From Trueperaceae bacterium (GTDB lineage: Bacteria; Deinococcota; Deinococci; Deinococcales; Trueperaceae): 64,000 bases of DNA. Shown here piece after piece: positions 45,491-50,332 of the stretch. The notes under the pieces were generated by a model. The model was not told the DNA's origin. It saw only the letters and a program-made list of their open reading frames with translations, and did no database searches. The stretch's first letter is position 1; every line of letters begins with the position of its first letter. The stretch is from the NCBI GenBank assembly GCA_965213925.1, contig OZ243927.1, forward strand, positions 1,728,001 to 1,792,000, read 5' to 3'. The position numbers and the translations under genes are program-made.

Positions 45491-46414
45491 TTAGTCGTTA
45501 CGCGCTAGAAACTCGAGCACCACCTCGTTGAACGTCTGCGCCCGGTCCTCATTCGGCAAGAGCTTCGCACCCGTAATCGGCACGAACTCGGTCTGCGGTC
45601 TCGCCCGCAAGAAGTCCGCCGCGTCGCCGATGGGCGTCGTGTCGCCCTCCGTCCCCCACAAGATGAGGGAGGGTTGCACCACCTCCGGCCAGAGCCCCGA
45701 GACATCTTGGTCTAAGTTGCCCGAGATAAAGGAGAGTACCGCCCACTTCGCGTTCTCCACCTTGAGGTTGCGGTCGTAGGTCGCCAGGACCTCGGGCGTG
45801 AGGCTCTCGCGGCTCGCGTAAGCGTCTAGGAGAAAGAGCCGCTGCGTCCCCTCATCTAAGAGCGTGACGTAGATTAAATTGCCCGTGAAGCCGGTGAAGC
45901 GCCCGAACGCCTCTATACGCGCCTCGTTCTGAGGTCGCGCCAAGCGCTCGTATCCCGTCGGGCTGATGAGGACGAGGCTTTTCGCCGCGCCCGGTCGCTC
46001 CGCCGCGATGCGAATCGCGTACGCCGCGCTGAGCCCGTTCGCCACGAGCACCGCTTCGCCCGAGACCTCTTCTAAAAACGCCGTGAGTTGCGCCACGTAT
46101 AGGTCCTGCGTGTAGCGAAGCTCGGGATGCGCGCTGCGCCCGAAGCCCAAGAGGTCGACGACGTAGACCCTGTAGCCAGCGGCGGCGAGCGCGGGCGCGT
46201 TTTTGCGGTACTGAAAGCCGGAGGAGCCCCCGCCGATGCCGTGCACCATCACAACGGCTGGACCCTCCCCGATGACCTCGTAGTAGGTTTCGTATTCGCC
46301 CAGCGTGACGGTTCGCGTCTGCGTCCCCGGAATGATCGCAGGCTCTTGCTCGATATCTAACGAGGGCAAGCACGCGCTGAGCAGGAGCGCTAGGGGGACG
46401 AAAAAGCGCTTCAC
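45491..46414 (-). CDS. Lipoprotein with alpha/beta hydrolase fold
   Basis: GTG overlapping the sufU stop; lipobox LLSA-C; VHGIGGG, DLLGFGRS. Confidence 0.8.
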   Translation of the reverse strand: MKRFFVPLALLLSACLPSLDIEQEPAIIPGTQTRTVTLGEYETYYEVIGEGPAVVMVHGIGGGSSGFQYRKNAPALAAAGYRVYVVDLLGFGRSAHPELRYTQDLYVAQLTAFLEEVSGEAVLVANGLSAAYAIRIAAERPGAAKSLVLISPTGYERLARPQNEARIEAFGRFTGFTGNLIYVTLLDEGTQRLFLLDAYASRESLTPEVLATYDRNLKVENAKWAVLSFISGNLDQDVSGLWPEVVQPSLILWGTEGDTTPIGDAADFLRARPQTEFVPITGAKLLPNEDRAQTFNEVVLEFLARND

Positions 46415-46830
46415 GGGGCGCGCTCTAAGGCACGCTCGAGCGTCACCCACGGCAGCGCGGCGCACTTCACGCGGGCGTGCAGCTTCGCGACGCCCTGGAG
46501 CATCCTCAAGTCGCCGAGGTCGGCGCTAGGCGGCTCGCCCTGCAGCATCGCCTTGAACTTTTCGCTCGTCGCTAAGGTCTCTGCCAACGTCTTGCCCTTG
46601 ACCGCTTCGCTCATCATCGAGGCGGAACTCTGGCTGATGGCGCAGCCCTCGCCCACGAACTTCACGTCGGTAATGACGTTTTCCTCGACGATAAGAAACA
46701 GCTCCAACTCGTCGCCACACGAGGGGTTGAGTCCCTCCTCGCGCACGGTGGCGTCCGCGAGTTCGCCCCGGTTACGCGGGCGTTTGTAGTGCTCTAAGAT
46801 GACCTCTTTGTATAGATTCTCTAGTGCCAT
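46411..46830 (-). CDS. sufU: SufU/IscU-type Fe-S scaffold / sulfur-transfer protein
   Basis: LYKEVILEHY, NPSCGD, GCAISQSSAS, RVKCA. Confidence 0.9.
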   Translation of the reverse strand: MALENLYKEVILEHYKRPRNRGELADATVREEGLNPSCGDELELFLIVEENVITDVKFVGEGCAISQSSASMMSEAVKGKTLAETLATSEKFKAMLQGEPPSADLGDLRMLQGVAKLHARVKCAALPWVTLERALERAP

Positions 46831-47232: not shown

Positions 47233-47448
47233 AGAGCTAAGCTTACTCGAAAAAGTCAAGCGTGCGCGTTTCGGGGCTCGAGCATCCTTTTGCCACGCTG
47301 GACGACCTCGCGAACCCTGTGTTACGCTCCAGCTATGCTTCATCAGGTACTGACAACTGGTCCTGCTCGTCCGCACGGTGGCTCGGGCGACATCAGGCAA
47401 TAGGGACTGGTCTGTCAACTTTTCATCTCTAAAACCTGAGGAGTACCC

Positions 47449-48645
47449 GTGCAAAATTTACGTATTCGTTTGTTGCGTTTCTACGCCACTGTGTCGTCTC
47501 ATTCCTATCAAAAACAGCAATTCTTCTCCTGCCTCGCAATCTTTTTCGTTCTCGGGTTACAGTCGGGCGCGTGGACCGTGCTGCTCGCTGATCTTGCGGA
47601 GGCTGCGAATGCTAACCCGGCTCGGTTGGGCGTTGCTCTGACGAGCATATCCGCTGCGGGCATCACGTCGCTTATCTTCGGAGGACGCCTAACCGATGTC
47701 CTCACTCGGCGTACGATTCTCGTTCTTTCTCTTATCGGCTCAGCCATGTTCTTTGCCATGCTCAGCGCGGTTTCTACCTACACGCAACTACTTGCCGCTT
47801 TCATCTTCGGGGGTCTCGTCATCAGCTTCTTTGACCTCATCGCCAACGCGATCGGCGGCGACTTTGAGCAGCAACACGGGAAAGCTCGCCTTACCTTCTT
47901 CCACGCGGGCTGGAGTTTCGGTGCGGCGTTGGGAGCCCTTGCAAGCGGGGTCGCCCTAGCTGTAGAGATAAGCTACTCGGCGCTCTTCGTTAGGTTGGCG
48001 GGTCTGCTTGTCTTTGCTGGACTCTTGAGCATCATTGCGCCCTTCCCTAAACAAGTGCGAGAACGAGAAGCGTCAGCGCAAACATCAGGGCGTGTGCTTA
48101 GTATCCGGGGTGTACTGCTCGCCGCACTACTAGTCGTTTCGACCTTCTCCATTGACGCGGGGCTCGAGGGCTACATCTCCCTCTATCTAAGGCAACTCAT
48201 CGGGAGCGGCGCACTTTTGGGCGGTATCAGTGTGGCGCTTCTCTACAGTGCTGCGGTTGTAGGAAGGCTCATGAGTGGCGCGGCGATTGGGCGTTTCGGA
48301 GAGCGGCATGTCATCTTGGTGTCCGGCGTGCTGACGCTGGTTGCGCTGCTACTTATCACGCTCTTCACCTCCACCTTACCTGTCGCTATAGGACTGCTTA
48401 TTATCGGTCTGGCATTATCCCCGCTCGCTCCCATTGCTTATTCGCAAGCAGCGAGAGCTGTGCCGGGGCGCGGTGGGCAAGCCGCCTCTGCGGTGACAAT
48501 CTTCGGTTACAGCGCCTTCTTGATTGCGCCTCTAATTATTGGTGGTGTAGCTGAACTTGCCTCATTGAGAACTGCGTTTATGCTACTTTTCGTCTCCGGT
48601 TTTGGCATTGTTGCGGTGTCTCGAGCGACGAAACCAAGCGCGTAG
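47449..48645 (+). CDS. MFS transporter
   Basis: About 12 TM helices; GGRLTDVLTRR and GRFGER loops; start uncertain. Confidence 0.85.
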   Translation: MQNLRIRLLRFYATVSSHSYQKQQFFSCLAIFFVLGLQSGAWTVLLADLAEAANANPARLGVALTSISAAGITSLIFGGRLTDVLTRRTILVLSLIGSAMFFAMLSAVSTYTQLLAAFIFGGLVISFFDLIANAIGGDFEQQHGKARLTFFHAGWSFGAALGALASGVALAVEISYSALFVRLAGLLVFAGLLSIIAPFPKQVREREASAQTSGRVLSIRGVLLAALLVVSTFSIDAGLEGYISLYLRQLIGSGALLGGISVALLYSAAVVGRLMSGAAIGRFGERHVILVSGVLTLVALLLITLFTSTLPVAIGLLIIGLALSPLAPIAYSQAARAVPGRGGQAASAVTIFGYSAFLIAPLIIGGVAELASLRTAFMLLFVSGFGIVAVSRATKPSA

Positions 48646-48682
48646 GACATATGTCTAACCTCTCAAAAGGTAAACTGTTCAC

Positions 48683-49807
48683 ATGAGTCAAGGTCCTACC
48701 GGAATCGTCATGATGAACTTGGGCGGTCCCAAAAATTTAGATGAGGTCCAACCCTTTCTCCTCAAACTGTTCGAAGACCGCGAGATCATCCAACTTCCCG
48801 TGCAGAAATACCTGGGTCCTTTCATCGCGAACCGCCGCACCAAAAGCGTGCAGCAGAACTACGCCGACATCGGCGGCGGCTCCCCGATTCTCAAGTGGAC
48901 TGAGGAGCAGGGGCAGGGCATGGTGGAGCGCTTAGACGAGATGTCACCGGAGACCGCGCCACATAAGTTTTACGTCGCATTTCGTTACGTCAACCCCTTT
49001 AGCGAAGACGCCCTACAAGCGATGAAAAACGACGGCGTCAAGCGAGCGGTGGCGTTCACGCAGTACCCGCAGTTTTCGTGCTCCACAACGGGCTCGTCCT
49101 TGAACGAACTCTGGCGGGCAGCGCGTCGCGTCGGATTGCAAAACGAGTTCGAGTGGAGCGTCATTGACCGCTGGCCCACCCATCCGCGCTTCATCGAGGC
49201 GATGACGGAGACCGTGAAGCAAGGTCTGGAACAGTTCGACGAGGCAGACCGCGACGACGTGCTCGTCCTCTTTAGCGCGCACTCGCTGCCCTTAGACGTT
49301 ATCAACCGGGGCGACGCCTACCCCGCCGAAATCGGCGCGTCGGTCCACGAGGTGATGTCGCGCTTAGACTACTCGCATGAATACATTCTCGCCTATCAGT
49401 CCGACGTAGGTCCGGTGCCCTGGCTCGGACCTGGCACCGAAAAGGTTCTCAAGAATTTAGGCGCGAAAAAGCGCAAAAACGTCCTCGTCGTCGGCGTCGC
49501 CTTCACGAGCGACCATATCGAGACGCTCCACGAACTCGACATCGAGTATGGCGAGTTAGCGCATGAGGTGGGCATCGAAAACTACAAGCGTGCGCCCGCT
49601 CTAAACGGAATGCCTGTCTTTCAAGACGCGCTCGCGGAAATCGTACATGAGCATCTTCAGTCCGGCGAAGCCTGCACGAAGCAGTACGGTTTGCGCTGCC
49701 CCGGCTGCGTGAACCCGCAGTGTCGCAACATCCTCAATCCGGTTGCGCCTTATAAGCGCACGAAGGTGAGTGTGGGGAAAGGGAACAAGCAGTATCAGGC
49801 GGTGTAA
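48683..49807 (+). CDS. hemH: Ferrochelatase, animal-FECH-like with C-terminal Cys cluster
   Basis: NLGGP, GGGSP, QYPQFSCSTTGSS, FSAHSLP, GPVPWLGP, FTSDHIETLHELD, CPGCVNPQC. Confidence 0.95.
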   Translation: MSQGPTGIVMMNLGGPKNLDEVQPFLLKLFEDREIIQLPVQKYLGPFIANRRTKSVQQNYADIGGGSPILKWTEEQGQGMVERLDEMSPETAPHKFYVAFRYVNPFSEDALQAMKNDGVKRAVAFTQYPQFSCSTTGSSLNELWRAARRVGLQNEFEWSVIDRWPTHPRFIEAMTETVKQGLEQFDEADRDDVLVLFSAHSLPLDVINRGDAYPAEIGASVHEVMSRLDYSHEYILAYQSDVGPVPWLGPGTEKVLKNLGAKKRKNVLVVGVAFTSDHIETLHELDIEYGELAHEVGIENYKRAPALNGMPVFQDALAEIVHEHLQSGEACTKQYGLRCPGCVNPQCRNILNPVAPYKRTKVSVGKGNKQYQAV

Positions 49808-49855
49808 CCGCTATTCGAAGTAACAGAGAAAGGAGTAGCGCAGAGTAGTGCCGCG

Positions 49856-50332
49856 CTACTCCTTTTTCAGTTGCCCCATTTTGTAGAGATACACCGCTAA
49901 AATCAGCAGGGGAAGAAAAAGACTCGAGACAATCAGCACCGGCACGCCCCATGCCACCTCGACACCTTGCGCCGTTCGCACCGTGAGCCACGAGAGAAAG
50001 AAAAAGATGCTGACAGTGAGCAGCTTGAGCCACGCCATCAGTTCGTTTACGAGAGGTCTCGAGCGCCCCGACGTGTCTTCTTTAATGTGCTTGGGGAGAT
50101 TCCAAAGAGGTGAACGGAGCGGTACGAACGAGAGCGCCGTGAACATCGCATAGAGTCCTAGACTAACGAACCAGAGTGACCAGATACTGTCTTTAGAGCC
50201 GAAGTCGTCCGCTTGCCCTGCCGCATTAAAGTGTGTCGGCACGGTGCTCGGTAAAGAGGTGTAGGAAACCCAGAGGTAGACGAGGTGCAGCGCGAGCACC
50301 GTAAGAGAGAGACTCTCGAGCCAGCGCCGCAC
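49856..50332 (-). CDS. DUF1648-domain membrane protein
   Basis: LPSTVPTHFNAAGQADDFGSK. Confidence 0.85.
   Translation of the reverse strand: MRRWLESLSLTVLALHLVYLWVSYTSLPSTVPTHFNAAGQADDFGSKDSIWSLWFVSLGLYAMFTALSFVPLRSPLWNLPKHIKEDTSGRSRPLVNELMAWLKLLTVSIFFFLSWLTVRTAQGVEVAWGVPVLIVSSLFLPLLILAVYLYKMGQLKKE

Follow-up and report, generated by a model that had tools for sequence, protein, structure and literature searches.

A FECH-type ferrochelatase in Trueperaceae points to an ancient bacterial gene transfer and a switch of the haem pathway

Introduction

Why should a bacterium of the family Trueperaceae (phylum Deinococcota) possess a ferrochelatase that resembles the mitochondrial enzyme FECH of animals? 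This question is raised by a gene located in a stretch of 64,000 nucleotides, referred to here as the window, which corresponds to C1:1728001-1792000 of a Trueperaceae genome (G000; 4.75 Mb, 6 contigs, 96.9% complete). A preliminary description, made from the sequence of the window, had noted the likeness and had explained it either by horizontal transfer or by a sister relationship between a bacterial clade and the eukaryotic enzyme. The analysis presented here makes it very probable that a cluster-bearing protoporphyrin ferrochelatase (PpfC) was acquired long ago from a Gemmatimonadota-like donor when the haem pathway was switched.

Weerth, Medlock and Dailey surveyed 482 ferrochelatases in 2021 and, according to the available part of their article, found C-terminal motifs in several bacterial phyla (PMC8529089). 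In the same part, a cluster-bearing PpfC is described as experimentally shown for Caulobacter crescentus; Rhodothermus, Salinibacter and one of two Gemmatimonadetes were assigned by their motif. Deinococcus-Thermus is represented there by five species, which do not include Truepera, and Chloroflexi by eight; for both phyla the number of motifs is zero. The role of the cluster is unexplained even in human FECH, as far as the accessible portions of two articles report (PMC8529089; PMC13564367). A prokaryotic PpfC with a C-terminal [2Fe-2S] motif is thus already known; what is new is that one family of the Deinococcota carries an enzyme of this kind as a rule.

Results

The gene codes for an intact ferrochelatase of the FECH type

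The gene and its functionally relevant elements are listed below; A1 is an alignment of 14 bacterial and eukaryotic FECH-type sequences, and pLDDT is the predicted local distance difference test score of the AlphaFold model.

48683..49807, + strand: gene of a FECH-type protoporphyrin ferrochelatase (hemH/ppfC), 374 amino acids plus stop codon, ATG start (open reading frame list, Pfam, TIGRFAM and structure matches)
49079..49081, + strand: codon of C133, putative first [2Fe-2S] ligand, human C196 (2qd3 alignment; all 81 bacterial FECH-type sequences have Cys here)
49280..49282, + strand: codon of H200, catalytic histidine, human H263 in FSAHSLP (alignment; His in 81 of 81)
49697..49723, + strand: C339-X2-C342-X4-C347, three putative C-terminal [2Fe-2S] ligands, human C403, C406 and C411 (2qd3 alignment)
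49727..49804, + strand: tail after the cluster motif, residues 349-374, NILNPVAPYKRTKVSVGKGNKQYQAV (alignment A1, C-termini, pLDDT <50)

The open reading frame matches the family PF00762 at profile positions 2-317 of 317 (E 3.6e-110; 368.3 bits at a cut-off of 27) and the model TIGR00109 hemH (E 6.1e-107; 357.8 bits at a cut-off of 124.6). The top match among solved structures is human FECH (2qd3; E 4.8e-137), which is aligned with residues 5-349 and requires one single-residue gap. Yeast FECH (1e-102) and the coproporphyrin ferrochelatases (CpfC) of Bacillus or Listeria (about 1e-35) are weaker matches. The AlphaFold model of the window protein has a mean pLDDT of 82.9 and superimposes on human FECH with a template modelling (TM) score of 0.87-0.90 and a root mean square deviation of 2.1 Å, at 56% sequence identity. 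The corresponding identities by superposition are 46% for yeast FECH, 26% for B. subtilis CpfC and 25-27% for the B. subtilis and Listeria CpfC enzymes taken together. The window enzyme is therefore far nearer to human FECH than to any bacterial ferrochelatase of the structure bank (about 26%).

The sequence blocks by which the preliminary description had recognized an animal-like FECH were all located in the open reading frame: SPETAPHKFYVAFRY at residues 88-102, AFTQYPQFSCSTTGSSLN at 124-141, WSVIDRWPTHP at 158-168, LFSAHSLPLDVINRGDAYP at 196-214, AFTSDHIETLHELDIEY at 273-289 and CTKQYGLRCPGCVNPQCR at 331-348. Together with the identity and the structure match, they substantiate the resemblance to the mitochondrial enzyme of animals. 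The ATG start agrees with that of Trueperaceae homologues, which begin with MSQGPTGIVMMN, MNRGPTGIVMMN or MTQGPTGIVMMN. Five residues precede the conserved core, and the window protein has no N-terminal targeting peptide; the eukaryotic rows of A1 possess 20-60 additional N-terminal residues. It is confirmed that the open reading frame represents an intact, full-length ferrochelatase and a real gene that occurs throughout the family.

The cysteines of a [2Fe-2S] cluster and the catalytic residues are conserved

The window protein contains cysteines at positions 133, 331, 339, 342 and 347. In the alignment with 2qd3, where human numbering equals the chain index + 64, C133, C339, C342 and C347 are paired with human C196, C403, C406 and C411, and the fifth cysteine C331 is paired with human C395. 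Both the open reading frame and this alignment hence agree with the earlier claim that all four ligands are present in the spacing C133-X205-C339-X2-C342-X4-C347. Of the 81 bacterial FECH-type sequences, all have C339 and C347, and 80 have C342; all ligands are invariant in A1. From these residues we infer that the window protein binds a [2Fe-2S] cluster. The cluster would be held by C133 and the three cysteines of the C-terminal extension, which would fasten the extension to the core in the manner of human FECH. The enzyme is probably a homodimer like its human counterpart.

D277, H278 and E280 correspond to human D340, H341 and E343, and each of them is found in 81 of 81 bacterial FECH-type sequences. 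In the human enzyme, H263 is the catalytic histidine and D340, H341 and E343 form an acidic patch. At the position of human M76, the window protein contains Leu13; the bacterial sequences contain Leu in 77, Met in 4 and Tyr in 0 of 81 cases. This position corresponds to Tyr13 of B. subtilis CpfC, and a residue other than Tyr is a feature of PpfC enzymes. The Thermus-type enzyme reads AYGTP at this place.

Residues 331-348 of the AlphaFold model are of lower confidence (block means 61 and 50), as is to be expected for a region modelled without its cofactor. The beginning of the tail, C-R-x-I/L-x-N-P, is common to these bacteria and to the FECH of protists from three supergroups, but not to metazoan FECH. 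The stretch of about 25 residues past the cluster motif (…PYKRTNVS.S.KNK.Y) is conserved across the Trueperaceae and predicted to be disordered (pLDDT <50).

The nearest relatives outside the family are enzymes from Gemmatimonadota and Chloroflexota

Proteins in records named Trueperaceae are 80-98% identical to the window protein; the value for Truepera radiovictrix is 82%. A scan of prokaryotes with one genome per species yielded 588 relatives, the best 80 of which were used for locus comparisons. These best 80 comprise Trueperaceae (72-89% identity), 41 loci of Gemmatimonadota (62-73%) and 6 loci of Chloroflexota (64-71%). The Chloroflexota with a FECH-type gene are Candidatus Chloroploca, a metagenome-assembled genome of the Chloroflexia, and Brachytrichaceae. 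In Candidatus Chloroploca mongolica, the gene was found on two contigs (L049 and L050) with equal identity (71%), E-value and C-terminus, which means that either the gene was duplicated or the contig is present twice.

Eukaryotic FECH sequences are 46% (Andalucia), 49% (Dictyostelium, Aphanomyces) or 50% (Cherax) identical to the window protein, and two proteins with presequence-like N-termini reach 55%. Alphaproteobacterial HemH proteins in PLSDB records are 24-28% identical, and the E. coli enzyme is about 29% identical. No FECH-type gene was detected on plasmids, as all 160 matching PLSDB records were <60% identical, the best one 39.5%.

The enzymes of Trueperaceae are a single clade that lies beside or within Gemmatimonadota

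An exploratory tree of 152 rows was calculated by means of FastTree, and a second one of 75 rows and 363 columns by means of IQ-TREE under LG+C20+F+G4 with posterior mean site frequencies (PMSF). The two trees agree. Supports are given as ultrafast bootstrap (UFboot)/SH-like approximate likelihood ratio test (SH-aLRT). A FECH-type clade of 51 rows (95/96) holds eukaryotes, Chloroflexota, Gemmatimonadota and Trueperaceae. Its eukaryotic rows are monophyletic (93/98), with the metazoa deep inside and the window protein outside. The Trueperaceae are monophyletic as well (97/95) and join the rows L031 and L054 at 83/81; the coordinates of L031 are identical to those of a Trueperaceae genome. They lie within a clade of 20 rows (97/94) that also contains Gemmatimonadota and has Chloroploca at its base. 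In contrast to this placement, the CpfC rows of Deinococcota, including that of the Trueperaceae genome G237, form a distant, separate clade (100/100). The window enzyme does not group with the usual HemH of its phylum, to which it is 30-35% identical.

In the best tree, the eukaryotes are nested among the FECH-type bacteria, beside two Chloroflexota (87/68). Alternative topologies were assessed with the approximately unbiased (AU) test. One clade of Trueperaceae and eukaryotes was rejected, being 47.8 log-likelihood units worse (p 0.033), and one clade of all bacterial FECH-type rows was retained (11.8 units, p 0.268). Gemmatimonadota, some Chloroflexota and Trueperaceae are thus the bacterial group nearest to the monophyletic eukaryotic FECH, and the Trueperaceae enzymes are one clade beside or within Gemmatimonadota. 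Of the two origins proposed initially, the bacterial sister clade holds insofar as the nearest bacterial neighbours of the eukaryotic enzyme are found here (joint clade, 95/96). A strict sister relationship and a paraphyly of the bacteria around the eukaryotes are both retained at p-AU 0.268. The higher identity to animals (56% compared to 46-50% for protists and yeast) fits short metazoan branches rather than a direct link.

In a quick tree with added hemH sequences, four Alphaproteobacteria and E. coli fall into a clade (SH-aLRT 100) far outside the FECH-type clade. The Alphaproteobacteria are represented in this tree by four valid rows; the Azospirillum row, taken from a wrong reading frame, is disregarded, and Caulobacter is not part of the tree. 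Two metagenome proteins, P0139 and P0151, form a long-branched pair within the FECH-type clade (93/98). They are 42% identical to the window enzyme and have kept the motif CxxCxxxxC; the best matches of P0139 are 49% identical, and no named close relative is among them.

The end of the haem pathway differs between Trueperaceae and other Deinococcota

Genome G000 contains one true ferrochelatase according to a PF00762 search. A second, weak match (24.7 bits) was rejected as a ferrochelatase, because its sequence reads as that of a CbiX-like two-domain chelatase. This protein of 246 amino acids is probably a siroheme or cobalamin chelatase, and its gene overlaps a uroporphyrin-III methyltransferase-like gene by 4 bases (L002:1183-2753; G000:C1, about 688-690 kb).

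ChdC/HemQ was not found in G000 at 96.9% completeness, and the positive controls were detected in Deinococcus and Thermus. HemF is present (406 bits; its gene is some 16 kb away from that of the ferrochelatase, just beyond the end of the window), and so is HemY (289.6 bits). The best solved relative of HemY is the protoporphyrinogen oxidase of Myxococcus xanthus (2.3e-81, compared to 3.9e-59 for the B. subtilis enzyme). HemJ was not found in G000.

The window protein was then compared with 301 Deinococcota genomes. Among Trueperaceae, 86 of 102 genomes gave a match; 85 of these matches are 67-100% identical (three are fragments at contig ends), and the one in G237 is 31% identical. The conclusions do not rest on G251, which is among the 86 and is marked as unpublished. 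The matches in other families of the phylum reach 30-35% only (28 of 112, 61 of 62 and 14 of 14 genomes), and a fifth family gave a barely detectable match in 8 of 10 genomes (E about 1e-7). ChdC, for which genomes of at least 90% completeness were surveyed, was found in 0 of 11 further Trueperaceae genomes, and in 82 of 82, 49 of 49 and 7 of 8 genomes of three other families. The Trueperaceae genomes G058, G086 and G189 contain HemF, and ChdC was not found in them. It follows from this pattern of gene content that most Trueperaceae run a protoporphyrin-dependent pathway, whereas the rest of the phylum is coproporphyrin-dependent. The closeness to the animal enzyme, which had been called unexpected for this host, is so indeed, given that other families carry a CpfC-type enzyme together with ChdC.

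In the single-contig Trueperaceae genome G237, the CpfC gene lies 2.6 kb from that of ChdC (185 bits; G237:C1:936621-940644), and HemF was not found in this genome. The genus of G237 has kept the coproporphyrin-type pair and may still show today what the family was like before its pathway changed.

The ferrochelatase gene of the window lies outside the haem gene cluster typical of its family

The surroundings of the gene contain the following features.

47449..48645, + strand: upstream gene of a major facilitator superfamily (MFS) transporter, same strand, possibly co-transcribed (PF07690, E 1.1e-25)
48646..48682, + strand: gap of 37 nucleotides between the MFS gene and the ATG (sequence reading)
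49843..49861, + strand: terminator-like hairpin with T-run, 36 nucleotides past the stop codon (scan; 3 such sites in the region compared to 2.8 expected)

Since terminator-like sites are no commoner than expected by chance, the hairpin is supported by its position alone. Downstream, on the other strand, follow the genes of a DUF1648 membrane protein and of two M16 peptidases; upstream lie a gene of the glyoxalase family and one for a NifU_N (IscU-like) protein. The latter, an iron-sulfur scaffold gene (window 46411-46830, - strand; E 7.6e-25), is located 1.85 kb upstream of the ferrochelatase gene. The G+C content is 0.565 in 48001-50000 and varies between 0.56 and 0.64 across the window. The placement of the gene among ordinary bacterial genes was thus described correctly at the outset. 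The leaderless-type start, which had also been proposed, was not borne out: in the gap, TAAACT occupies 48671-48676, with 6 nucleotides left to the ATG, and is preceded by a weak AAGG (48667-48670); a gene on the same strand ends 37 nucleotides upstream; and a consensus scan detected no sigma-70-type promoter in 47300-50000. A leaderless start is possible.

Homologues of the MFS, DUF1648 and M16 genes stand next to the ferrochelatase gene in 0 of the 80 related loci. Instead, 20 of the 80 loci, each of the Trueperaceae type, have hemF ahead of the ferrochelatase gene in the same orientation, and in 15 the two genes are direct neighbours; hemE precedes hemF in 18, and hemY directly follows the ferrochelatase gene in 6. 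In none of the 41 Gemmatimonadota and none of the 6 Chloroflexota loci was hemF found beside it. Because the neighbours seen in the window are absent from the 80 loci and the order in the family is hemE-hemF-ppfC(-hemY), we conclude that the cluster was broken up in this genus and that the gene is for this reason now flanked by unrelated genes. In G000, hemF and, upstream of it, a hemE-like open reading frame are located at G000:C1:1793679-1796066 on the minus strand, about 1.7 kb past the end of the window and 16 kb from the ferrochelatase gene.

Discussion

A probable ancient gain from a Gemmatimonadota-like donor

According to the explanation we favour, the ancestor of most Trueperaceae would have replaced the ending of the haem pathway consisting of CpfC and ChdC by HemF, HemY and a FECH-type PpfC. 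The PpfC would have come from a Gemmatimonadota-like bacterium, and many Trueperaceae would have kept the hemE-hemF-ppfC(-hemY) cluster. In this pathway, HemF and HemY would supply protoporphyrin IX, into which PpfC would insert Fe2+ as the last step of classical, protoporphyrin-dependent haem synthesis. That protoporphyrin IX is the substrate of the window enzyme is inferred from its sequence relationships. The horizontal transfer suggested initially thus remains the most likely route of acquisition; its donor, however, would have been bacterial and not an animal, as the joint clade of Trueperaceae and eukaryotes was rejected at p-AU 0.033.

Several observations weigh against this explanation. 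A Gemmatimonadota-like donor is not proven, since a monophyly of Gemmatimonadota with Trueperaceae outside costs no more than 17.8 log-likelihood units (p-AU 0.086), and the nodes directly above the Trueperaceae are weak (90/42 and 83/81). The bootstrap was not fully settled (correlation 0.989), the groups for the AU test were chosen after viewing the trees, and many tree rows, including most of the outgroup, are unnamed metagenome proteins. HemF was detected in only one of the five genomes of FECH-type-bearing Gemmatimonadota or Chloroflexota that were searched, at 50-51% identity, and the arrangement hemE-hemF-ppfC occurs in 0 of 41 Gemmatimonadota loci. Furthermore, 16 of the 102 Trueperaceae genomes gave no match to the window protein. 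Five of these (G141, G161, G166, G182 and G253; 91-98% complete) also lack a PF00762 match, and one of the five is a single contig of 98% completeness; haem synthesis may be lost in them. For G237, a retained ancestral state is a deduction, as this genome is not anchored in the family tree. Finally, it is by homology that the enzyme is assigned its cluster, its preferred substrate and its oligomeric state.

With respect to HemF, a co-transfer with the ferrochelatase was considered and is supported neither by synteny in the 80 loci nor by the search of the five genomes. HemF and HemY are not especially eukaryote-like. The Gemmatimonadota that were sampled did not simply hand over the cluster as one piece. 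As HemF does not show the donor signal of the ferrochelatase and Gemmatimonadota loci have no such cluster, either the pathway genes stem from several sources or the actual donor is missing from the sample.

Competing explanations

The resemblance to human FECH could at first sight indicate a transfer in which an animal or another eukaryote passed on the gene directly and not very long ago. Human FECH is the best solved match, its identity exceeds that of yeast FECH (56% compared to 46%), and the spacing of the C-terminal ligands is the same as in the animal enzyme. However, Gemmatimonadota and Chloroflexota provide nearer relatives at 62-73% identity, the eukaryotes are monophyletic (93/98) with the metazoa deep inside, and a joint clade with Trueperaceae costs 47.8 units. 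The gene is moreover common to the family (85 of 102 genomes), its G+C content of 0.565 lies within the range of the window, a presequence is missing, and the tail CRNILNP matches protists and other bacteria instead of the metazoan C-terminus. Such a transfer is therefore extremely improbable. An even smaller chance, close to nil, is left for a eukaryotic or foreign gene that was mis-binned during assembly. The unexpected similarity is all that speaks for contamination, and the gene lies at 1.78 Mb within a contig (C1) of 4,584,497 bases among ordinary bacterial neighbours. Relatives from the same genus are 96-98% identical, and several of the 85 Trueperaceae genomes with the gene consist of a single contig.

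It is likewise very unlikely, if somewhat less so, that the enzyme is a CpfC of the coproporphyrin-dependent pathway that merely looks like FECH. Dailey and co-workers reportedly classed the phylum Deinococcota as coproporphyrin-dependent, which agrees with the ChdC detected in the Deinococcus and Thermus controls. Moreover, the accessible text of PMC13564367 states that some CpfC enzymes carry [2Fe-2S] clusters. On the other hand, ChdC is absent from G000 and 11 other Trueperaceae genomes and HemF is present; HemY is nearest to a true protoporphyrinogen oxidase; and Leu occupies the position at which CpfC has Tyr. The identity is 25-27% to B. subtilis and Listeria CpfC and 30-35% to Deinococcota HemH, and the alignment with human PpfC has a single one-residue gap. 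Vertical inheritance deserves a little more weight, although it is improbable too. In this case, the FECH-type enzyme would be ancestral in the Deinococcota or a wider group, and the other families would have switched to CpfC and ChdC. The enzyme is old and widespread in its family, and neither the monophyly of bacterial FECH-type rows (p-AU 0.268) nor that of Gemmatimonadota (p 0.086) was rejected. Yet the other families searched hold a CpfC-type match (ChdC was looked for in three of these four families and is present in all three), as does the genus of G237. Given CpfC in the other families and in one Trueperaceae genus, a single gain inside the Trueperaceae is the simplest history. In addition, the identity of 62-73% to Gemmatimonadota and Chloroflexota and the nesting among Gemmatimonadota in the best tree conflict with the relationships of the phyla.

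Implications for the origin of mitochondrial ferrochelatase

These bacterial enzymes could give a handle on the origin of mitochondrial ferrochelatase. Tentatively, and with the balance tipped against it, one may consider that the enzymes of Chloroflexota, Gemmatimonadota and Trueperaceae represent what survives of the bacterial stem from which the mitochondrial enzyme arose. Eukaryotes would then have obtained FECH, with its C-terminal [2Fe-2S] extension and the CR-x-I-x-NP tail, from this group and not from the alphaproteobacterial ancestor of mitochondria. This idea is derived from the nesting of the eukaryotes beside two Chloroflexota (87/68) and from the position of the four alphaproteobacterial HemH sequences far outside. 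As the sister arrangement was retained (p-AU 0.268), the reverse direction, in which an early eukaryote donated the gene to bacteria, is also open. The authors of the 2021 survey assume an alphaproteobacterial source of the eukaryotic cluster-bearing enzyme (PMC8529089).

A search of the literature retrieved no article that names Truepera together with ferrochelatase. Nor did it retrieve any on these bacterial relatives of eukaryotic FECH, one relevant review not being covered; the available parts of PMC8233740, PMC11914136, PMC10740692 and PMC13564367 make no mention of them. In a phylum that was scored without motifs in 2021, as far as the accessible portion of the survey goes (PMC8529089), a FECH-type enzyme is the rule in one family. 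Within this phylum the end of haem synthesis was swapped, which offers a clean example from nature for research on the replacement of an essential pathway.

Comparison with known ferrochelatases

The CpfC (HemH) enzymes of Deinococcus, Thermus and B. subtilis share with the window enzyme the Pfam family and the fold (TM score 0.70-0.74). They differ in their identity of 25-35%, in lacking the C-terminal extension and its cysteines, in their partner ChdC/HemQ and in their separate clade (100/100). The bacterial PpfC enzymes with a C-terminal [2Fe-2S] motif, as portrayed in the available part of PMC8529089, are likewise prokaryotic and contain three ligands in a C-terminal extension.

With human FECH (PDB 1HRK, 2QD3), the window enzyme has in common 56% identity, an alignment of 345 residues with one single-residue gap, the His and Asp-His-x-Glu residues, and the four [2Fe-2S] cysteines, whose spacing is equal but for one residue. 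In contrast to human FECH, it has no mitochondrial presequence, a Leu at the position of M76, the C-terminus CRNILNP... instead of CRETKSFF..., and a place in the bacterial part of the tree. As the enzyme of Truepera radiovictrix is 82% identical to it, that protein could serve as a bacterial stand-in for studying the cluster of human FECH.

Most similar are the enzymes of Gemmatimonadota and of some Chloroflexota (Candidatus Chloroploca, Brachytrichaceae), which share 62-73% identity, the length, the four cysteines, the tail start CRNILNP and the clade. They belong to other phyla, and the 41 + 6 loci inspected have no hemE-hemF-ppfC-hemY cluster. Compared to these relatives, the tail of about 25 residues past NILNP is specific to the Trueperaceae.

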